This document shows positions 3,146 through 28,465 of a DNA stretch of 32,000 bases, one piece after another. The stretch's first letter is position 1, and each line of letters begins with the position of its first letter. A model generated the notes under the pieces. It had not been told where the DNA came from. It was given only the letters and a program-made list of their open reading frames with translations, and did not search any database. The position numbers were made by a program, and so were the translations under genes. This DNA comes from Microcystis aeruginosa NIES-843 (lineage in GTDB: Bacteria > Cyanobacteriota > Cyanobacteriia > Cyanobacteriales > Microcystaceae), in contig NC_010296.1 of NCBI RefSeq assembly GCF_000010625.1, positions 480,001-512,000 on the forward strand. The letters run 5' to 3'.

Positions 3146-4510
3146 GTGACCAAGACCCCATCGCTCGAGGAAACTCATTACAATCAGGCTAAAGCTAGTT
3201 TACAACAGGCTTTAACTTGGTATGCCAGTTTTCGCCGTCATTGGAATTATCCCCCCGATCCCCAACTTCAGGCCGCCGTTAAACAGGATTTACAGTCCCT
3301 AAAATCGGCCTTGGCTAAACTGGATGAAACGGTGATTCGGGTGGCAGCCTTCGGGTTAGTCAGTCGCGGTAAATCCTCGGTGGTAAACGCTTTAGTCGGT
3401 CAAAAAGTCCTGGCAACCGGACCCCTGCACGGGGTGACACGCTGGCCGCGATCGGTGCGTTGGACACCAGCCACGGGTAAAATCCAGATAGAATTAATCG
3501 ATACCCCCGGATTGGATGAGATTGAAGGGGAAGCGCGGGCGAATATGGCCAGAGAAGTCGCTAAAAGTGCCGATTTAATTTTATTTATCGTTGCGGGGGA
3601 TATTACCCGCACTGAATACGAGGCCTTAGGAGAATTGCGCCGGGCAAAAAAACCGATTATTTTGGTGTTTAATAAGATTGATCTCTATCCAGAAGCGGAT
3701 CGCCGTCAGATTTTTCAGCAGTTACAGAGATTAGGAACCAATCGGGACGAAAAAACGTTAGAAGATTTGTTAACTAGCGATGAGATAGTTATGGTAGCCG
3801 CCGAACCGCAACCGATTCCCGTCCGGGTGGAATACCCCGATGGGCGCGTGGTGACTGAGTGGGAAACCCCTCCCCCCCAAATTGAGGAGCTGCAAGATAA
3901 ACTCTTAACGATTTTAAATCGGGAAGGGCGATCGCTACTGGCCTTAAATGCTTTAGTGCAAGGGCAAGAAGCGGAGGAAAATATCGCTAGAAAAACCCTA
4001 GAACTCCGGGACAGTCAAGCGGAGGAAATTATCTGGCAATACGCGAAATATAAGGCTTTAGCGATTGCGGCCAATCCGATCGCTATTTTAGACCTACTAG
4101 GGGCTTCAATCGTCGATTTAACTCTAGTTCGGGCTTTAGCTCGTTTGTACGGCTTGCCGATTACCAGTCACCAAGCTGGTCAACTCTGGCGGACTCTACT
4201 TTTGAGTAGTGCGGGGTTGCTGTTGGGGGAAATCCTCGGCACTGTGATTATCGGTTTGGGCAAAACGGCGGCGGCAGCGGCGAGTATTTTTGAAAATCCC
4301 ACCTCTTTAACCCTCTACGGTAGCACCGCTCTCTTACAGGGAGCAATTGCCGCTTATGGAACCTATATCATCGGGAAAGCCGCTAAAATCTATCTAGAAC
4401 GCGGTTGTAGTTGGGGGGCATCCGGACCGAGTACGGTGATCAATCAAATTCTCGCTCAAGTTCATCCGCAAACTATTTTATATCGTTTACGTCTAGAACT
4501 AGAACAGTGA
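3146..4510 (+). CDS. membrane-associated GTPase (Era/EngA-like G domain plus hydrophobic C-terminal domain, DUF697-like)
   Basis: G1 GLVSRGKSS, G3 DTPG and G4 NKID are present. The C-terminal third is hydrophobic (LLLSSAGLLLGEILGTVIIGLG). The start is GTG. Confidence 0.7.
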   Translation: MTKTPSLEETHYNQAKASLQQALTWYASFRRHWNYPPDPQLQAAVKQDLQSLKSALAKLDETVIRVAAFGLVSRGKSSVVNALVGQKVLATGPLHGVTRWPRSVRWTPATGKIQIELIDTPGLDEIEGEARANMAREVAKSADLILFIVAGDITRTEYEALGELRRAKKPIILVFNKIDLYPEADRRQIFQQLQRLGTNRDEKTLEDLLTSDEIVMVAAEPQPIPVRVEYPDGRVVTEWETPPPQIEELQDKLLTILNREGRSLLALNALVQGQEAEENIARKTLELRDSQAEEIIWQYAKYKALAIAANPIAILDLLGASIVDLTLVRALARLYGLPITSHQAGQLWRTLLLSSAGLLLGEILGTVIIGLGKTAAAAASIFENPTSLTLYGSTALLQGAIAAYGTYIIGKAAKIYLERGCSWGASGPSTVINQILAQVHPQTILYRLRLELEQ

Positions 4511-4562
4511 TTTTAAAGGAAAAAGTAAAAAGGAAAAAAGGCAACAGTGATCAATTAAATAT

Positions 4563-4707
4563 GGTTCTTCGTTACTTGGCATGGTTCGATCGGATGGCAT
4601 AAATCGACTAAATTCTTATCTGGCAAAAGACTTAATTGATTAGTTCGTTCTAGAGGGAAAACAATTGACAAATCCCTGATAACCCCGTCCATTGCATAAC
4701 ACGAACC
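4563..4707. mobile_element. MITE-like dispersed repeat (family also at 28280-28457)
   Basis: About 145 bp sharing ggttcttcgttacttgg...ggcataaatcgactaaat...aaaacaattgacaaa...ccgtccattgcata.cac.aacc with 28280-28457. The ends are imperfectly inverted (GGTTCTTCGTTA / GGTTCGTGTTA). Confidence 0.5.
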
Positions 4708-4803
4708 ACTGACGACCGACTCCTGACTCCTGATGACCGACTCCTGATTTTAGAAACTTAATTTTTGACAACGACAACTAGCTAGAAATATTGAGAGAAA
4801 ATC

Positions 4804-5361
4804 ATGTCTGCTGCCCATAAGTCCTATATTCCCGTTCCCGTTTCTCGCCAAAAAAGCCAAGGGAGTCAACGTCGTCCCCAGTCGCGGGTAACTTCCCCCA
4901 ACCCCACTACTAAACCAGTTACTCAATCCTCCCCGACTCCCACCGTCAAACCGACGACTAAATCGGTGGCGAGAGTTCCCGTGGCCCCGACACAAAAACA
5001 ATTAGCCTCGCGTCAATTACGTTCCCTTTGTCTCCTAGAAAGAATAGTGGCCGTGATTACTTTTTGTCTGTTGGGTTCGACTCTGGGAATATATGCTTGG
5101 ACGGTATATATTCCCAAGGTTTGGGACAAAGAATTTGGTAAACTGGAAACACTGCAACGTCACGAGCGCAATCTTTTGGCCACCAATGAAACCCTTAAAC
5201 ATCAACTAGCTCAACAAGCAGAAAAACCCGAAACCGGATTAACTCATCCCCAACCCTTCCAAACTATCTTTTTACAGCGTAAATCTGCCCCTAACCTGAA
5301 ACCGGCCAACGCTTCTCAACCCCAATCTACCGTCAATTCTCGACCGAGAAGTGCCTATTAA
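4804..5361 (+). CDS. hypothetical bitopic protein, possible FtsL/DivIC-like divisome component
   Basis: It has a Pro/Thr-rich N-terminus, one TM segment (IVAVITFCLLGSTLGIYAWTVYI) and then a heptad-like segment (LETLQRHERNLLATNETLKHQLAQQAE). It lies directly upstream of ftsI. The function is inferred from architecture and position only. Confidence 0.35.
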   Translation: MSAAHKSYIPVPVSRQKSQGSQRRPQSRVTSPNPTTKPVTQSSPTPTVKPTTKSVARVPVAPTQKQLASRQLRSLCLLERIVAVITFCLLGSTLGIYAWTVYIPKVWDKEFGKLETLQRHERNLLATNETLKHQLAQQAEKPETGLTHPQPFQTIFLQRKSAPNLKPANASQPQSTVNSRPRSAY

Positions 5362-5700
5362 CAGTTATCAGTTAACAGTTAACAGTTATCAGTGGGGAAG
5401 TTAACAGTTAGCAGTTATCAGTTAAGTGGGGAGGCACAATTATGTGTAGGATGGGTTAGCGGTAGCGTAACATAATCGGGCGTTGGGTTTCATGCTTCAA
5501 CCCAACCTACGTTCATCTTATATTTAATTCCACCCACCCACTTATCAGTTATCAGTGGGTAAGTTAACAGTTATCAGATGTGAGTTTTTAAGTGTACTGA
5601 TTACTGTTTACTGTTTACTGTTTACTGCTCACTGTTTACTGTTTACTGCTCACTGATTACTGCTTACTGATTACTGATTACTGCTCACTGATAACTGAAA
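5362..5700. repeat. composite of heptamer tandem arrays (CAGTTAW)n ... (TTACTGN)n flanking an 87-bp dispersed element
   Basis: Direct reading. The left array is cagttatcagttaacagttaacagttatcag. The right array is ctgattactgtttactgtttactgtttactgctcactg...ctgataactg. The two arrays are approximately reverse complements of each other. Confidence 0.85.
5428..5514. repeat. 87-bp hairpin-forming dispersed element (second copy at 17498-17583)
   Basis: gggaggcacaattatgtgtaggatgggttagcggtagcgtaac...gggcgttgggtttcatgcttcaacccaacctacgttc is nearly identical to 17498-17583. It contains the stem gttgggtt/aacccaac and an outer stem gtagg.tgggtt/aaccca.cctac. Confidence 0.8.
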
Positions 5701-7564: not shown

Positions 7565-7593
7565 TTTAAGTCTTTTTGAAAGAGGCTTTATTT

Positions 7594-7829
7594 AGGGTTT
7601 GCTGAAAAAGTTTGTTGGTGGGGTTAGGAGTCAGGAGTCGGTCGTCAGTAGCCGGTCGTCGGGAGTTTCAGGCTTTGTTGCCCTCTCTTTTTTGTACCAA
7701 CCCATGTACTATAATAAGGATAATGCCAGGTTTTTGATGGTCCCAATCCGATTTTTTGGCACTAACATCGGATTTTAACAGGTCAAAAGCCTTATTTTAA
7801 AAGGGTTTTACCATTATTCAGCAAGCCCT
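7594..7829. mobile_element. 236-bp MITE with AGGGYTTGCTGAA termini (same terminal family as 21749-22754 and 26119-27117)
   Basis: The left end is agggtttgctgaaaaagttt. The reverse complement of the right end is agggcttgctgaataatgg. These termini match the ends of the two 1-kb intron-bearing elements, but the interior differs. Confidence 0.6.
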
Positions 7830-8236
7830 AAATAGGCTAAAAAAGTCTCTAACATCCCTCTAGATTGATTATCTGGCATCATCCACACACCGAATTTTAT
7901 CCCCGATTCTAGAGTCATAATTAATCCCGCTGCTGGTAAATTTTGAGGTAAGCTAGGTATATTTGGTAAACAGGCATTATATAAACTTTTCCAACGATTA
8001 TCAGGTTCTTCGTCCGCATCTATGATAATTCCTAAATGAGTTAGTCCGTTAGGAGTTTTTAGTTGCGTAGAGATATATTTAGGTTTTAGTAAATTTTCAA
8101 CACCATCACAATTTATGATATTCAATGGTTCTTCCCCTCTATTCCAAGTAACTCCATTTGCTGCCATTAATTGGGGAATAACTCTCAATTCCTCTGCACC
8201 TTCCACTAATAACTTTTTTGTCTCTATTTTAGGCAT
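7814..8236 (-). CDS. TOPRIM-like small protein (DUF3226/DUF4276/DUF4435-like signature), 3'-truncated by MITE
   Basis: LLVEGAEE (the conserved Glu) and IIIDADEE (DxD) fit a TOPRIM-type acidic pattern, and GVWMMPDNQSRGMLETF resembles DUF3226 as I recall it. The start lies 2 nt after the ATPase stop. The last five codons (LGLAE) and the stop are encoded by the MITE terminus. Confidence 0.5.
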   Translation of the reverse strand: MPKIETKKLLVEGAEELRVIPQLMAANGVTWNRGEEPLNIINCDGVENLLKPKYISTQLKTPNGLTHLGIIIDADEEPDNRWKSLYNACLPNIPSLPQNLPAAGLIMTLESGIKFGVWMMPDNQSRGMLETFLAYLGLAE

Positions 8237-17390: not shown

Positions 17391-17497
17391 TTAACGGTAG
17401 GGGATTCCTTGATCTTGATCTTAGTTCTTTGCCGGCCGATTGTCGGGAACCAGAATAGACTATTATCTATAGTCATAATTTCTTTTATTCATCAGTA

Positions 17498-17583
17498 GGG
17501 AGGCACAATTATTTGTAGGATGGGTTAGCGGTAGCGTAACCCATGCGGGCGTTGGGTTTCATGCTTCAACCCAACCTACGTTC
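17498..17583. repeat. second copy of the 87-bp hairpin-forming dispersed element
   Basis: Near-identical to 5428-5514, with differences at only a few positions. Confidence 0.8.
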
Positions 17584-21356: not shown

Positions 21357-21676
21357 GATGCCATTGGTGAAGAATCAGTGGTTCTTGGATGGGTCGTAAT
21401 AGTAATTTCAACCTGTTGATTGAGACGACCCAAAATTGAGATCAAACGGTCAATAGTAAAGCGTCCCAAATTAGCACGGCGAATCTGGACAAATTCACTG
21501 TGATTAATTCCAGTTCGCACTTGAGCATCGCGGGTTGATAAGTCTTCCTTCTCCAGAACCTTGATAATTTCAGCAGCAAGCAGTGCTTTCGCTTGTCGCA
21601 CGTCCGCATCTACATCGCCAAAATCGCGGTACACATTACCGCTACCTTGTACCAGTTCAAATTGTTCTTCACTCAT
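21353..21676 (-). CDS. XRE/HTH_37-type antitoxin
   Basis: The N-terminal [10 protein letters not shown] motif and the HTH ([37 protein letters not shown]) are typical of antitoxins paired with RelE/Gp49-like toxins. Its ATG overlaps the stop of a toxin remnant (ATGA). Confidence 0.65.
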
Positions 21677-21748
21677 GAGAGTTCCTCCTTCAATCCCTTG
21701 AGCCGTGCTTTGATAACTTCGACTTCCTGTTGTGGTGTTTTGATAGTT
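21673..21748 (-). pseudogene. 3' remnant (about 24 codons) of a RelE/Gp49-like toxin gene, cut by the 1-kb element
   Basis: The minus-strand translation is ...[25 protein letters not shown]. The KTPxxE(I/V)E..A..R tail is typical of Gp49/HigB-2-type toxins. The sequence upstream of codon L is the terminus of the inserted element. Confidence 0.5.
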
Positions 21749-22754
21749 AGGGCTGGCTGAATAAATCTAAAAACCTTGCTGGATAAGACTTTTAGACTTT
21801 GTTGAAATCCAAAAGTACCAGATATGGGAGTGATCAGGGGTAAATTCAGGTACTTTTTCCCTGAAAATTAGGTAATTGACCCCCTCAAAATCGGTAAAAC
21901 CCCACACCCGTTACAGTAGAGCAGGAAGTCGCCTTCCCACCCCCTGCTTCAAAACCGGACTTACGACTTTCGCCGTATCCGGCTCCTGAGTAACTAGGCT
22001 ACTGTCATTAGTAGAATAATAATGGGAATTATTATTTCCTTGTCTATTCAACCCTCTTGGCTGTATCCCCACCAGACAAGATTGTTGGTTTTAGGGCGTA
22101 TATGACCGTTGATTGTTGCTTAGACTTCCTAGTTACCCGTCCTTTGTCAGCATATCTTTGATATTACTCAAAGCCTTGGCTTTTAAGGACATCCTCTCCC
22201 TCTATTGACTTGCGGATGGTTTCCTACTGCCCCGAACGGGCAGAGTCAATCAGGGTTACTTCGTTCCCTATAACCATTGGTTGAACCCTTAGGATGATAC
22301 TGTCCACAACAGAGTAACGGGAATGCCTTACTGATAGTGGTATGAGCTATCAGCCCCAACTCTGTTAACTTTTGTTTCGAGCCTGTCAGCCTTTTGGCTC
22401 GTGGGTGTTGACGATGGTTAATTCGTATCTTCGCCCCAGGGCTATCCATAGGTTCTGGCTCAACGGGTTTCTGATTTAGGCTATCAGATACCGCTTTTTT
22501 TTCCTCGCTCACTACCTCAGATGTACCAAGTCTAAAGCAGCAGGAAATGCCGTCACTCTAGGCATCTAGAGGACAGGACTAAGGTTATTACTAACCCGCA
22601 CCTGTAGGGTTATAAAGTTATCAAGGTACTACATTTACCAAGCGGCTAATCCTCTAAACGTCTTACTGTCTAGTTTCTAGCCAACGAATCGCACCACACC
22701 CTACACCCTACACCCTATACCCTGCCCCTAGGAAAAACTTTTTCAGCAGACCCT
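21749..22754 (-). mobile_element. 1006-bp TIR-bounded element carrying an ORF-less group II intron (copy A)
   Basis: The imperfect termini are agggctggctgaataaatc and, as the reverse complement of the right end, agggtctgctgaaaaagtt. The element is about 99 percent identical over its interior to 26119-27117. Confidence 0.7.
21916..22694 (-). ncRNA. ORF-less group II intron ribozyme, copy A (3' boundary +/- 15 nt)
   Basis: On the minus strand the 5' end is GTGCGATTCG, starting at 22694. Domain V is GAGCCGGAUACGGCGAAAGUCGUAAGUCCGGUUU (21985-21952), folding as 9 bp, an AA bulge, 5 bp and a GAAA loop, with the AGC triad. It is followed by a GCGA-capped hairpin (candidate domain VI) ending ...CUCUAC. 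No RT ORF is present. Confidence 0.75.
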
Positions 22755-23106: not shown

Positions 23107-23457
23107 TTGAGTTACTGTCTGCCTGATGCTAAATATAGCGCTTCTGTCGTGGCTCAAACTCCACAACCGGCTATTGGGCAATCTCAAACAGAGCAGAAAA
23201 TTGATAATTATTTTAGCCCCATTCAACCAGATGGTACACCCAAATTAGGGATCGATCGCTGGTGGGCAACCGCAGGAGTAGATAAGGAAATTACGGTTAA
23301 CTGGACGGTAGAAGTTAAGGAAAAAGGCGAATATTATCTCCGTCTAGGTGTAGATTTAGAAAATTTTGATGTAATCAAAAGATTTAGAAAGTGGAAGCTC
23401 AGTGATCAGGTTTCTATTAAGATTTCAGATGATTATAATAGACCTGTTTCTAGCTAT
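23107..23457 (+). pseudogene. 5' segment of a disrupted Vps62/DUF946-like gene (continues at 27309)
   Basis: The ORF reads ...KISDDYNRPVSSY and then runs into the IS terminus. The same frame resumes after the CTAT duplication at 27309. Confidence 0.6.
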
Positions 23458-23645
23458 TGGGACTTAAACAAATTTCAAGCCCAAACAAAGCCTAAACTGG
23501 CTTTGTAAGCGGCAAACACATCCCGATTCTCGGTCAGCCACTCAAAGAAACGGAAAGACATCGCTGTCCGAAAAGCTTCCAAGGCTTCCACAAAAGTGTT
23601 TAAAGGTCGATTCGCCCACCGCCTTTGCAATCCCCCAGTTAACTG

Positions 23646-23758
23646 ATATCATTTTTCAAAAGTGATGACAGACTTAGTTGATTATTCCAAAGCGCAATTC
23701 CGCTCTCGGAAAGGAATTGCGCTTTTAGATGTTAGTCACGACTATTGAAAATTGGTAT
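23646..23758. mobile_element. about 113-bp MITE inside the outer IS copy (boundaries +/- 3 nt)
   Basis: It is absent from the intact copy, which reads cagttaacttatgccacagg at 24137-24156. Imperfect 22-bp TIRs are ATATCATTTTTCAAAAGTGATG and ATACCAATTTTCAATAGTCGTG. The internal 10-bp palindrome is gcgcaattcc...ggaattgcgc. Confidence 0.65.
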
Positions 23759-23963
23759 GATGCCACAGGATAAATGTATAGGCACAAAACACCAAGATAA
23801 AATGACGAAGTAAGCTTCGTTTATCCCTGACTTGATATTCCCTTAACCCTAACCATCCTTTGGCTTCTCGGTAGAATACTTCCACCCAATTTCTTTCGGT
23901 GTAAGTCCTCACTATCCACGAAGCTGTTACTGTATCTGCCTCAACTACATTGGTGATGAAATA

Positions 23964-25327
23964 GTGGGACTTAAACAAATTTCAAGCCCAAACAAAGCCT
24001 AAACTGGCTTTGTAAGCGGCAAACACATCCCGATTCTCGGTCAGCCACTCAAAGAAACGGAAAGACATCGCTGTCCGAAAAGCTTCCAAGGCTTCCACAA
24101 AAGTGTTTAAAGGTCGATTCGCCCACTGCCTTTGCAATCCCCCAGTTAACTTATGCCACAGGATAAATGTATAGGCACAAAACACCAGGATAAAATGACG
24201 AAGTAAGCTTCGTTTATCCCTGACTTGATATTCCCTTAACCCTAACCATCCTTTGGCTTCTCGGTAGAATACTTCCACCCAATTTCTTTCGGTGTAAGTC
24301 CTCACTATCCACGAAGCTGTTACTGTATCTGCCTCAACTACATTGGTGATGAAATAGTCCACCTCTGTGGCTTTTTCCATTGAACTTGCATTCATGACGA
24401 TCGCCAAGTTCCTTTCTCCTTCTAGTTGAGATATTTTCGCTCTGAATACCGCTACCCAAACCGTTTTTTCTTTATCTAGATTTAGGGTGATTTTCTCCCA
24501 ATCCTTTTCTGATAGGCTTTTTGCTAGTTGCTCAAGCTGGATTGTTTCTTCCACACCCCCTTCTTTTTCAATAATTACTTTTCGATTTTTTGCCAATCCT
24601 CCTAAGTATTTTAGCTTTCTTTCTTCCAGGGCTTTGAGAAAATTTGTGTTGTTGCCATAACCAGCATCTATTAAGACGATTTTCGGTCGATAGCCTCTGG
24701 TTAAGCTCCGGTCAATTAAATCTATCGCTATCTCTGGTTTCTTCTTAAATTCTTTGTCTTCTTTCCCCTCGGCTAAGGAACTAGCCGGTTGATAAATTTC
24801 CCTGTCTAGGGGTACACTTTTTTTGCCGTCGTAGAGATGAGTAGTGACGGCGACTATTCCGTTGTCTGTCTTGCCAATTTCTCCTAGGTACTGCCTGCCA
24901 ACTCCGGCGGTCAGATTGCCACTTTTTCGATGTCCTGAGTCATCGACAATCAGGGAAAATCCTCGGGGGATTTGCGTCTGGCGGCATTGGTTCATCACTT
25001 GCAACCGACATTCATTCACCTGACGGTCTGACCAGGGAGATTCGGTCAAAAAGTGATGTAATCGGTTATAAACTACTCCGACGGCATTATTGGCCATTTG
25101 AGTGAGGTTTTTCCGCTCACTTTCCCCTAATAATCCTCCTAAATATTGTCTGAAGCCGTTTTTTTGCGCTTCGTTTTTGAAGCAATTGTCAAACCGCCGA
25201 CACCATCGGTCAAAGCATGGGGGCATCGCGGCTGGGGTTGTCTCTTTCATCGCTGATCTTTCAACGTAAAGTGCTTACTCTTTAACGATTATACTCGATT
25301 TGATCTTTATTTGGCGTTTAAGTCCCA
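23964..25327 (-). mobile_element. inner, intact IS701-family element (1364 bp)
   Basis: Perfect 12-bp TIRs TGGGACTTAAAC are flanked by an ATAG duplication (23960-23963 and 25328-25331). The uninterrupted target ggtgatgaaatagtccacctctg is visible inside its own transposase gene at about 24348-24370. Confidence 0.85.
23982..25250 (-). CDS. IS701-family DDE transposase
   Basis: The 422-aa ORF has an N-terminal region typical of IS701 (FRQYLGGLLGESERKNLTQMA...LHHFLTESPWSD). Candidate DDE residues lie in LIVDDSG, VLIDAGYG and NWVEVFYREAKG. Confidence 0.8.
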   Translation of the reverse strand: MKETTPAAMPPCFDRWCRRFDNCFKNEAQKNGFRQYLGGLLGESERKNLTQMANNAVGVVYNRLHHFLTESPWSDRQVNECRLQVMNQCRQTQIPRGFSLIVDDSGHRKSGNLTAGVGRQYLGEIGKTDNGIVAVTTHLYDGKKSVPLDREIYQPASSLAEGKEDKEFKKKPEIAIDLIDRSLTRGYRPKIVLIDAGYGNNTNFLKALEERKLKYLGGLAKNRKVIIEKEGGVEETIQLEQLAKSLSEKDWEKITLNLDKEKTVWVAVFRAKISQLEGERNLAIVMNASSMEKATEVDYFITNVVEADTVTASWIVRTYTERNWVEVFYREAKGWLGLREYQVRDKRSLLRHFILVFCAYTFILWHKLTGGLQRQWANRPLNTFVEALEAFRTAMSFRFFEWLTENRDVFAAYKASLGFVWA

Positions 25328-25331
25328 ATAG

Positions 25332-26118
25332 TCCACCTCTGTGGCTTTTTCCATTGAACTTGCATTCATGACGATCGCCAAGTTCCTTTCTCCTTCTAGT
25401 TGAGATATTTTCGCTCTGAATACCGCTACCCAAACCGTTTTCTCTTTATCTAGATTTAGGGTGATTTTCTCCCAATCCTTTTCTGATAGGCTTTTTGCTA
25501 GTTGCTCAAGCTGGATTGTTTCTTCCACACCCCCTTCTTTTTCAATAATTACTTTTCGATTTTTTGCCAATCCTCCTAAGTATTTTAGCTTTCTTTCTTC
25601 CAGGGCTTTGAGAAAATTTGTGTTGTTGCCATAACCAGCATCTATTAAGACGATTTTCGGTCGATAGCCTCTGGTTAAGCTCCGGTCAATTAAATCTATC
25701 GCTATCTCTGGTTTCTTCTTAAATTCTTTGTCTTCTTTCCCCTCGGCTAAGGAACTAGCCGGTTGATAAATTTCCCTGTCTAGGGGGACACTTTTTTTGC
25801 CGTCGTAGAGATGAGTAGTGACGGCGACTATTCCGTTGTCTGTCTTGCCAATTTCTCCCAGGTACTGCCTGCCAACTCCGGCGGTCAGATTGCCACTTTT
25901 TCGATGTCCTGAGTCATCGACAATCAGGGAAAATCCTCGGGGGATTTGCGTCTGGCGGCATTGGTTCATCACTTGCAACCGACATTCATTCACCTGACGG
26001 TCTGACCAGGGAGATTCGGTCAAAAAGTGATGTAATCGGTTATAAACTACTCCGACGGCATTATTGGCAATTTGAGTGAGGTTTTTCCTCTCACTTTCCC
26101 CTAATAATCCTCCTAAAT
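25332..26118 (-). pseudogene. central fragment of the outer IS701 transposase gene
   Basis: Near-identical to 24352-25141 of the intact copy. Its 5' continuation lies at 27118-27227 beyond the 1-kb insert, and its 3' continuation lies at 23458-23963. Confidence 0.8.
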
Positions 26119-27117
26119 AGGGCTGGCTGAATAAATCTAAAAACCTTGTTGGATAAGACTTTTGGACTTTTTTCCCCTCAAAAAGTACCAGATATGGGAG
26201 TGATCAGGGGTAAATTCAGGGACTTTTTCCCTGAAAATTAGGTAATTGACCCCCTCAAAATCGGTAAAACCCCACACCCGTTACAGTAGAGCAGGAAGTC
26301 GCCTTCCCACCCCCTGCTTCAAAACCGGACTTACGACTTTCGCCGTATCCGGCTCCTGAGTAACTAGGCTACTGTCATTAGTAGAATAATAATGGGAATT
26401 ATTATTTCCTTGTCTATTCAACCCTCTTGGCTGTATCCCCACCAGACAAGATTGTTGGTTTTAGGGCGTATATGACCGTTGATTGTTGCTTAGACTTCCT
26501 AGTTACCCGTCCTTTGTCAGCATATCTTTGATATTACTCAAAGCCTTGGCTTTTAAGGACATCCTCTCCCTCTATTGACTTGCGGATGGTTTCCTACTGC
26601 CCCGAACGGGCAGAGTCAATCAGGGTTACTTCGTTCCCTATAACCATTGGTTGAACCATTAGGATGATACTGTCCACAACAGAGCAACGGGAATGCCTTA
26701 CTGATAGTGGTGTAAGCTATCAGCCCCAACTCTGTTAACTTTTGTTTCGAGCCTGTCAGCCTTTTGGCTCGTGGGTGTTGACGATGGTTAATTCGTATCT
26801 TCGCCCCAGGGCTATCCATAAGTTCTGGCTCAACGGGTTTCTGATTTAGGCTATCAGATACCGCTTTTTTTTCCTCGCTCACTACCTCAGATGTACCAAG
26901 TCTAAAGCAGCAGGAAATGCCGTCACTCTAGGCATCTAGAGGACAGGACTAAGGTTATTACTAACCCGCACCTGTAGGGTTATAAAGTTATCAAGGTACT
27001 ACATTTACCAAGCGGCTAATCCTCTAAACGTCTTACTGTCTAGTTTCTAGCCAACGAATCGCACCACACCCCACACCCTACACCCTGCCCCTAGGAAAAA
27101 CTTTTTCAGCAGACCCT
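26119..27117 (-). mobile_element. 999-bp TIR-bounded element carrying an ORF-less group II intron (copy B)
   Basis: It is inserted between cctcctaaat and aaatattgtctg of the transposase gene, and AAAT is duplicated at 26115-26118 and 27118-27121. The intact copy reads cctcctaaatattgtctg at 25136-25153. Confidence 0.8.
26286..27064 (-). ncRNA. ORF-less group II intron ribozyme, copy B (3' boundary +/- 15 nt)
   Basis: It has the same GTGCGATTCG 5' end (27064) and an identical domain V (26355-26322). By hand alignment I count five nucleotide differences from copy A. Confidence 0.75.
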
Positions 27118-27308
27118 AAATATTGTCTGAAGCCGTTTTTTTGCGCTTCGTTTTTGAAGCAATTGTCAAACCGCCGACACCATCGGTCAAAGCAGGGAGG
27201 CATCGCAGCTGGGGTTGTCTCTTTCATCGCTGATCTTTCAACGTAAAGTGCTTATTCTATAACAATTATACTCTATTATACTCTTGTTGATCGTTTAAGT
27301 CCCACTAT

Positions 27309-28279: not shown

Positions 28280-28457
28280 GGCTCTTCGTTACTTGGTATG
28301 GTTCGATAGGGGGGCATAAATCGACTAAATCCTTATCTGGCAAGAGTTCTATTGATTAGTTTGTTCTAGCTCGAAAACAATTGACAAAAATCGCATCAAT
28401 GTCCTTCTCTATAAGGGTTTCATCCCTTATAACTCCGTCCATTGCATAGCACAAACC
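28280..28457. mobile_element. second copy of the MITE-like repeat seen at 4563-4707
   Basis: It shares the termini and core with 4563-4707 and has an extra internal hairpin (ataagggtttcatcccttat). Confidence 0.5.
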
Positions 28458-28465
28458 GAAGAACC

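Follow-up and report, generated by a model that had tools for sequence, protein, structure and literature searches.

How did a group II intron and a MITE (miniature inverted-repeat transposable element) come to lie one inside the other within a single transposase gene, and which of the two arrived first? The question is raised by a 999-bp unit (positions 26119-27117) in a 32,000-nt stretch of the Microcystis aeruginosa NIES-843 genome (NC_010296.1, positions 480,001 to 512,000; hereafter the window), which interrupts the transposase gene of an IS701-family insertion sequence (IS). An earlier note on this DNA had read the unit as a clean insertion with a 4-bp duplication, AAAT, had attributed the duplication to DDE-type transposition of the carrier rather than to retrohoming of the intron, and had left two histories side by side: either the MITE and its intron were mobilised together as DNA, or the MITE landed first and the intron homed into it later. 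Our analysis makes the following account very likely: the MITE entered the IS701 element with duplication of its target, and the intron retrohomed afterwards into a tract of heptamers carried by the MITE.

The interrupted element (outer IS; 23458-27304, minus strand) is a dead copy bounded by perfect 12-bp terminal inverted repeats (TGGGACTTAAAC / GTTTAAGTCCCA) and a 4-bp duplication, CTAT (23454-23457 and 27305-27308), and it carries three insertions, namely a 114-bp MITE-like insert, a second IS701 copy and the 999-bp unit. The second copy (sister IS; 23965-25327, minus strand, 1363 bp) is intact and is nested in the outer one between duplications of ATAG (23961-23964 and 25328-25331). Its 422-aa transposase open reading frame (ORF; 23982-25250, minus strand) aligns without a break to the NCBIfam profile NF033540 (IS701 family; 344.9 bits, cutoff 150; residues 13-366, profile positions 1-362 of 363) and matches Pfam DDE_5 over residues 20-228 (E = 2.9e-43). 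Both copies carry the transposase profile of the IS701 family and its terminal inverted repeats with a 4-bp duplication; a duplication of this length is the rule for IS701 (ISfinder). When the inner IS was removed, the outer and sister copies differed in a global alignment at 15 of 1353 aligned positions, and the one gap, of 1003 bases, lay at the site of the 999-bp unit.

The left junction of the unit in the outer IS reads ...CCTCCTAAAT|AGGGCTGG (unit start 26119) and the right junction CAGACCCT|AAATATTGTCTG (unit end 27117), and at the same point the sister IS reads CCTCCTAAATATTGTCTG without interruption. In short form, the outer copy has CCTCC-TAAATA-GGG…CCC-TAAATA-TTG where the sister has CCTCC-TAAATA-TTG. 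The empty site lies at 25135-25152 (TAAATA at 25140-25145); the earlier note had recognised it as such and had placed it one base off, at 25136-25153. Exactly 1003 bases were added, which can be written as the 999-bp unit plus AAAT or, equivalently, as 997 bp plus TAAATA. Of the two TAAATA copies, the left one occupies 26114-26119 (AAAT register 26115-26118) and the right copy 27117-27122 (AAAT register 27118-27121). The uninterrupted site corresponds to codons 35-37 of the intact 422-aa ORF, and an IS consensus containing AAATAAAT is excluded because 4 additional bp would disrupt the frame of an ORF whose alignment to the family profile is continuous. The MITE of this unit, called here copy B, is flanked by a target-site duplication for which the sister IS provides the empty site, so the clean insertion of 999 bp and the AAAT duplication of the earlier note both hold.

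Without the intron the unit is a MITE of about 216 bp (214-216 bp), divided by the intron into a long arm of 161 bp that forms the 3' exon (26119-26279, minus strand, GGGTGTGGGGTTTTACCGATTTTGAGGGGGTC…TTCAGCCAGCCCT) and a short arm of 53 bp that forms the 5' exon (27065-27117, minus strand, AGGGTCTGCTGAAAAAGTTTTTCCTAGGGGCA followed by the heptamers GGGTGTA GGGTGTG GGGTGTG). The intron of copy B is located in this run of GGGTGTR heptamers. The termini of copy B are TAGGGTCTGCTGAA… and …TTCAGCCAGCCCTA, those of the MITE are TAGGGYYKGCTGAA / TTCAGCMRRCCCTA, and the ends TAGGG…CCCTA are invariant in all MITE copies. The longest ORF wholly inside the arms has 46 aa, and the element is short, does not code for protein and has terminal inverted repeats. 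Chance does not account for the termini, because 0.31 occurrences of AGGGYYKGCTGAA would be expected in the window and seven are present. With an exact 22-mer of the long arm as probe, 53 loci were found in a collection of species-representative genomes, all of them in Microcystis and spread over several species; the MITE has many dispersed copies, and the termini belong to many mobile units, on which the reading in the earlier note depended. Only one of these loci (L053) has an intron junction, and the others show an intron-less 5' context where it is readable. About 50 intron-less copies in other Microcystis genomes keep an intact homing site (…GGGTGTR GGGTGTR GGGTTTTACCG…), so the intron-less relatives that the earlier note proposed to look for are abundant. 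The MITE and intron composite had no match in plasmid or phage collections.

The order of events can be read from a second genome. A 49-aa ORF (27078-27227, minus strand) runs from the transposase start into the MITE and, because it ends before the intron, is the same with or without it; exact look-up of this ORF led to a single other place, in the Microcystis chromosome AP019314.1 (292596-300745; locus L079). There an IS701 copy lies at a different chromosomal locus (flanks …TCGTCTAG|IS|CTAGGAAT…) with its own duplication, CTAG, and carries a MITE that agrees with copy B in IS position, orientation and flanks, the arms being identical at 214 of 214 positions. No intron is present in its tract (GGGTGTAGGGTGTGGGGTGTG^GGGTGTGGGGTTTTACC); the sole gap between the window and L079 is 26280-27064, which is the 785-nt intron base for base, and the MITE insertion in L079 measures 218 bp (214 + 4). 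Since the MITE stands intron-less at the identical site, it made the duplication while it was intron-less, and in the lineage of the window the intron arrived after the MITE. The occupied and empty alleles differ by the intron alone and there is no duplication at the intron borders, as in retrohoming. This comparison bears out the assignment of the duplication to the carrier, and it decides between the two histories of the earlier note for the one in which the MITE came first; joint mobilisation as DNA found no support. As a side observation on L079, gene callers predict there a 411-aa DDE_5 transposase (4252-5487) that starts inside the MITE arm, and the MITE may provide a substitute N-terminus for the transposase and not merely cause the loss of the gene.

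The intron itself (785 nt; 26280-27064, minus strand) starts with GTGCG at 27064 (in longer form GTGCGATTCGTTGGC) and ends with …CTACTGTAAC at 26280. These boundaries, GTGCG…CTGTAAC, were fixed independently by L079 and agree with the group II consensus (5' GUGYG, 3' AY). Rfam model RF00029, which represents domains V-VI, matches 26280-26357 on the minus strand over its full length (1-77) with 55 bits against a gathering threshold of 40, and an identical match occurs at 21910-21987 in copy A, a second MITE of the window with the same intron. In the minimum-energy fold a bulged A is predicted, and it lies 7 nt upstream of the 3' splice site; the model match and this fold agree with a catalytic domain V and a domain VI with a bulged branch adenosine. 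Domain I gave a sub-threshold match to group-II-D1D4-2 (26.7 bits versus 36). The longest ORF in the intron has 88 aa; lacking an intron-encoded protein, the intron is an ORF-less derivative, which is a known sub-type. Exact-protein look-ups returned no record for the 88-aa intron ORF of copy B or for a 53-aa intron ORF, and a search of viral contigs with the domain V pattern gave no match. In many draft and metagenome contigs an end falls within the intron (L053, L072-L078), and for this reason intron-bearing copies are under-counted in draft genomes.

One contig, L071 (VYLL01000380.1), holds in its positions 1-230 a variant whose final 118 nt are 98% identical to those of the intron, with domains V-VI identical, preceded by a different domain IV ending in an open frame (…EQSKSVKAGAKNPSGKKQKPKS-stop, …KKQKPKS-stop), where the contig starts. 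This copy is inserted beside a degenerate heptamer-like tract. From its sequence it is probably the 3' end of a protein-coding parent intron, truncated by the contig end. A reverse-transcriptase ORF in L065 was considered as the parent and rejected, its intron being unrelated at the nucleotide level.

To what does the intron home? We collected intron contexts from seven contigs located through the 88-aa intron ORF of copy A, from ten metagenome contigs located through the domain V pattern and from the window, which together provide at least 14 distinct insertion contexts. The intron is found in full MITEs (copy A with its ortholog in L070, copy B, and L053), in half MITEs (L055, L057, L058), in other MITE subfamilies in the opposite orientation (L075/L078, L077), and with no MITE on either side (L054 and L056); the 3' exons of L072, L074 and L077, whose contigs begin inside the intron, are not MITE sequence. 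All visible 5' exons end with GGGTGTR-GGGTGTR, all 3' exons start with G, and the orientation of the intron relative to the heptamers is always the same. The window has two tracts of (GGGTGTR)>=2 in total and both are occupied by the intron. One short motif used in one orientation at independent sites is the pattern of retrohoming; what the intron homes to is therefore the run of heptamers, of which the MITE is only one carrier. As L054 and L056 show, the intron does not depend on the MITE.

The predicted base pairing is consistent with such a target. A candidate exon-binding site 1 (EBS1), UACACC, occupies intron positions 351-356 within a 9-nt hairpin loop and would pair with GGUGUR at -6 to -1, being complementary to GGUGUA and forming a wobble with GGUGUG; both endings are observed in 5' exons. 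A candidate EBS2, ACACCC (positions 287-292), is complementary to GGGUGU at -14 to -9, one heptamer upstream. Two tandem heptamers and the following G are predicted to be able to supply the intron-binding sites IBS2 (GGGUGU), IBS1 (GGUGUR) and IBS3.

Copy A (21749-22754, minus strand; intron 21910-22694, minus strand) is a MITE of a different sub-lineage and has one more heptamer than copy B. The arms of the two copies show 10 differences in 214 positions plus a 7-bp indel, and the introns 5 in 785 (Fisher p = 1.8e-4), so that the arms diverge about 7-fold more than the introns. When arms were compared over 153 positions across L001-L053, the nearest relatives of both copies proved to be intron-less MITEs of other genomes (copy A and L021, 2/153; copy B and L046, 2/153), the two window copies being 9/153 apart and copy A and L053 21/153. 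The intron of copy A is identical at 785 of 785 positions in L054-L059, which are six loci at five distinct sites (L058 and L059 share a 3' exon), and this identity indicates that the intron spread recently; the intron of copy B has 5 private changes. L057 joins a copy-B-type arm to a copy-A-type intron (0 differences from A, 5 from B). The divergence of arms and introns, the intron-less nearest relatives and the mixture in L057 together argue for repeated recent homing and not for the spread of a composite as a DNA unit.

Copy A has unequal flanks, TAGTTA and TAAGTA, which come from different places; it lies at a rearrangement breakpoint, and this explains the absence of a duplication. Its left flank (21673-21748) retains ~24 codons from the end of a Gp49/HigB-type toxin gene, the rest of which is absent. 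At this locus the window was compared with eight genomes (L061-L068) that have the orthologous HTH_37 antitoxin gene: the window is collinear with seven of them up to 21744, 4 bp before the MITE, and L065 diverges near 21718; the sequence to the right of copy A (22755 onward) was not found in the L061-L068 loci. In seven of the eight genomes an intact Gp49-type toxin gene stands upstream of the antitoxin gene, and L065 is also without an intact pair. The comparison of strains that the earlier note had proposed is provided by L070, a metagenome-assembled Microcystis contig, which has copy A at the same locus in the same arrangement and is without the outer IS and everything nested inside it; its host gene is a diverged allele, to which the exact empty CTAT site could not be aligned.

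Several other readings can be set against the homing of the intron into a resident MITE. The one that keeps most credit, although we consider it improbable, gives the MITE a larger part as the vehicle of the intron, composites with intact terminal repeats being cut and pasted by the MITE transposase. If it were true, every MaeMITEa-type MITE (hundreds per genome; see below) would be a landing pad, with EBS1 and EBS2 reading one heptanucleotide, and an ORF-less retroelement would gain a DNA-based route of spread that needs no reverse transcriptase.

Less probable still, and in our opinion unlikely, is the arrival of the intron in copy B through homologous recombination or gene conversion between MITEs at the DNA level, with no RNA intermediate. 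Two observations speak for processes of this type: L053, which has the intron, and L002, which has not, share orthologous flanks identical at 695 of 700 positions and differ at 9 of 153 positions in their arms, which resembles the replacement of a whole MITE, and the mismatched flanks of copy A, where collinearity with the eight genomes ends, indicate that MITE-associated rearrangement occurs. For copy B, however, the identity of its arms with those of the intron-less L079 leaves no co-converted tract, and the same register (…GGGTGTR|G…) is used in the tracts of L054 and L056 that have no MITE homology. The insertion point also fits the predicted EBS1 and EBS2 pairings, and the orientation of the intron with respect to the heptamers is constant.

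Movement of the whole composite in a single cut-and-paste event by the MITE transposase, followed by precise loss of the intron in L079, we regard as very unlikely. The unit does have intact terminal repeats and a duplication around it as a whole, and larger chimeras bounded by MITE termini with matching outer flanks (L030, TATT…TTTA) make the mobilisation of an oversized unit conceivable. Against this, the identical MITE is intron-less at the identical site in L079, intron-less copies are the rule among the 53 loci, no two loci have the same composite with duplications of their own, and the divergence of the arms of copies A and B and the combination found in L057 point the other way. Group II introns, moreover, are rarely lost precisely from DNA.

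The duplication at copy B can also be placed within its family. The flanks of the MITE have the form TANN|TAGGG…CCCTA|NNTA, so that the target is TANNTA and the duplication counts as 2 bp (NN), 4 bp (ANNT) or 6 bp (TANNTA) according to where the ends of the element are drawn, for one and the same sequence; the AAAT of the earlier note is the ANNT register. Among 30 complete MITE copies TA is present at -4/-3 in 29 and at +3/+4 in 27, and NN is identical on both sides in 12 (p = 1e-7), far above chance; counted by distinct site it is identical in 11 of ~24 (p ~7e-8 against a chance rate of 1/16). That there was no duplication at all, the IS701 consensus itself reading AAATAAAT or TAAATAAATA, or that there was a simple TA duplication of the IS630/mariner type, can be dismissed: TA does adjoin GGG…CCC in every copy, but the sister IS has TAAATA only once in an intact frame aligned continuously to the IS701 profile, the insertion in L079 measures 214 + 4 bp, and a non-palindromic NN is directly repeated in 8 copies.

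Several points weigh against the history that we prefer, in which the MITE inserted first and the intron homed into it later. The NN dinucleotides are unequal in 18 of the 30 MITE copies, and either exchange of flanks by recombination is common or the insertion rule is incompletely understood. The differences between the arms of L053 and L002 hint at gene conversion between MITE copies. The EBS/IBS pairings derive from one minimum-energy fold, and the near-identity of the intron copies provides no covariation. No Pfam match to a reverse transcriptase was found among the ten window ORFs scanned, which did not include the ORFs inside the intron, and of a full-length ORF-containing sibling intron only the 3' fragment in L071 was recovered. 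Precise loss of the intron in L079, rare as it would be, is the only alternative to its later arrival. Finally, the autonomous transposon that the earlier note proposed to search for was not found: ~670 kb of Microcystis DNA, not whole genomes, examined for pairs of termini 500-3500 bp apart and in the neighbourhoods of orphan termini, contained no transposase gene with TAGGG… termini. The pairs proved to be ordinary genes bracketed by two MITEs (L077 6039-7834, L037 177-1981), none of the orphan termini adjoins a transposase gene, and an IS1634-type element in L079 has unrelated termini.

With these points in mind, the history that we propose has three steps. A MITE of ~216 bp entered the TAAATA site in codons 35-37 of an IS701-family transposase gene and produced the duplication, the transposase presumably being supplied in trans. 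After that, the IS with its MITE reached at least two chromosomal sites in different strains, presumably mobilised in trans by intact sister copies. In the last step the 785-nt intron arrived in the (GGGTGTR)n tract, on the transposase gene's sense strand, probably by retrohoming; as the intron is ORF-less, it would need the reverse transcriptase/maturase of a related ORF-containing intron elsewhere in the genome.

Other small elements of the window and of the related loci deserve mention. A third MITE (7593-7830) has the same termini (TAGGGTTTGCTGAA…TTCAGCAAGCCCTA) with another interior, lacks a GGGTGTR tract and is intron-less. Many MITE copies (L008, L018, L019, L020, L029, L032, L038, L044, L073) contain within the heptamer tract a G/C-rich palindromic insert of ~30-40 bp (e.g. 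CCCCCCCAACCCCCCCGACATCGGGGGGG), which looks like a second small element targeting this tract. In L030 and L033 the 5' part of one MITE ends at an internal TACCTA, where a second complete MITE is attached; L030 has matching outermost flanks (TATT…TTTA), as would be expected had the chimera moved in one piece. Both were considered as further MITE-in-MITE empty-site controls and set aside as chimeras, not clean insertions. The 114-bp insert in the outer IS (23644-23757), which the sister IS does not have, shows imperfect inverted ends of ~20 bp (ATCATTTTTCAAAAGTGATGAC … GTCACGACTATTGAAAATTGGTA) and flanks TGAT/TGAT where the sister reads TTAT, and looks like a further small MITE with a 4-bp duplication. 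A 186-bp MITE at 28280-28465 (ends GGCTCTTCG…CGAAGAACC, internal mini-ORF MSFSIRV…), with a partial relative at 4563-4700, fits the description of the 187-nt ISL3-associated MITE of M. aeruginosa PCC 7806 (PMC11448079). A dispersed repeat of ~90 bp (…GGGTTTCATGCTTCAACCCAACCTACGTTC) at 5425-5514 and 17494-17583 is the 3' exon of the intron copy in L074. The IS701 duplications CTAT (outer), ATAG (inner) and CTAG (L079) together suggest a CTAK-like target preference, and exact-protein look-ups returned no record for the sister transposase or for a 238-aa truncated transposase ORF.

Each layer of this locus is an event of a known type, that is, a MITE inserted with a duplication, one IS nested in another, and the homing of an ORF-less group II intron to multicopy DNA, and the pile-up of mobile DNA is well documented but essentially ordinary for Microcystis. 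The case is unusually clean, the sister IS being the empty control for the MITE and L079 the empty control for the intron, and because each step has a natural empty-site control the order of events is directly readable. The data indicate a tract of tandem heptamers as the target of the intron, so that a MITE present in high copy number gives it many more places to land. Such a target explains the many near-identical ORF-less intron copies in Microcystis without damage to host genes, and the (GGGTGTR)2-G motif can be used to annotate these introns, which are currently unannotated and break short-read assemblies.

The elements themselves correspond to types described from NIES-843, where MaeMITEa has 219 bp and 240 copies and ISMae34, of the IS701 family, has 1368 bp and 32 copies (PMC2779907). 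Genus, sizes (~216 bp and 1363 bp here), family and high copy number agree, and by these matches of size, family and copy number, not of sequence, our MITE is probably of the MaeMITEa type and our IS is probably ISMae34. In the literature that we searched, no group II intron is reported to target a heptanucleotide tract or a MITE of Microcystis. Among the closest parallels are RmInt1 and RmInt2 of Sinorhizobium meliloti, with natural targets in ISRm2011-2 and in the inverted repeat of ISRm17 (PMC4615759): there as here a multicopy mobile element supplies a bacterial group II intron with homing sites, recognised by EBS/IBS pairing, which for the Microcystis intron is predicted. In contrast to these introns, the target of the Microcystis intron is a tandem heptanucleotide tract found inside and outside the MITE, not a unique IS sequence, and the intron has no ORF and is known from sequence alone. 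ORF-less cyanobacterial introns mobilised by the proteins of sibling introns have been described in Thermosynechococcus elongatus (PMC2882425), where the TeI3 introns depend on 'driver' proteins of ORF-containing siblings. The sibling is seen here only as the 3' fragment with a different domain IV in L071, and a single target motif is common to the Microcystis copies, whereas the TeI3 introns have split into families that differ in their targets. Nesting of an intron and a transposon is also known from the 'MITEtron' of Candidatus Thiomargarita nelsonii, in which a MITE lies inside a group I intron, and from IStrons, which combine a group I intron with an IS200/605 element (PMC4853749). The locus described here differs from both in that a group II intron lies inside the MITE and the two show no sign of joint movement.

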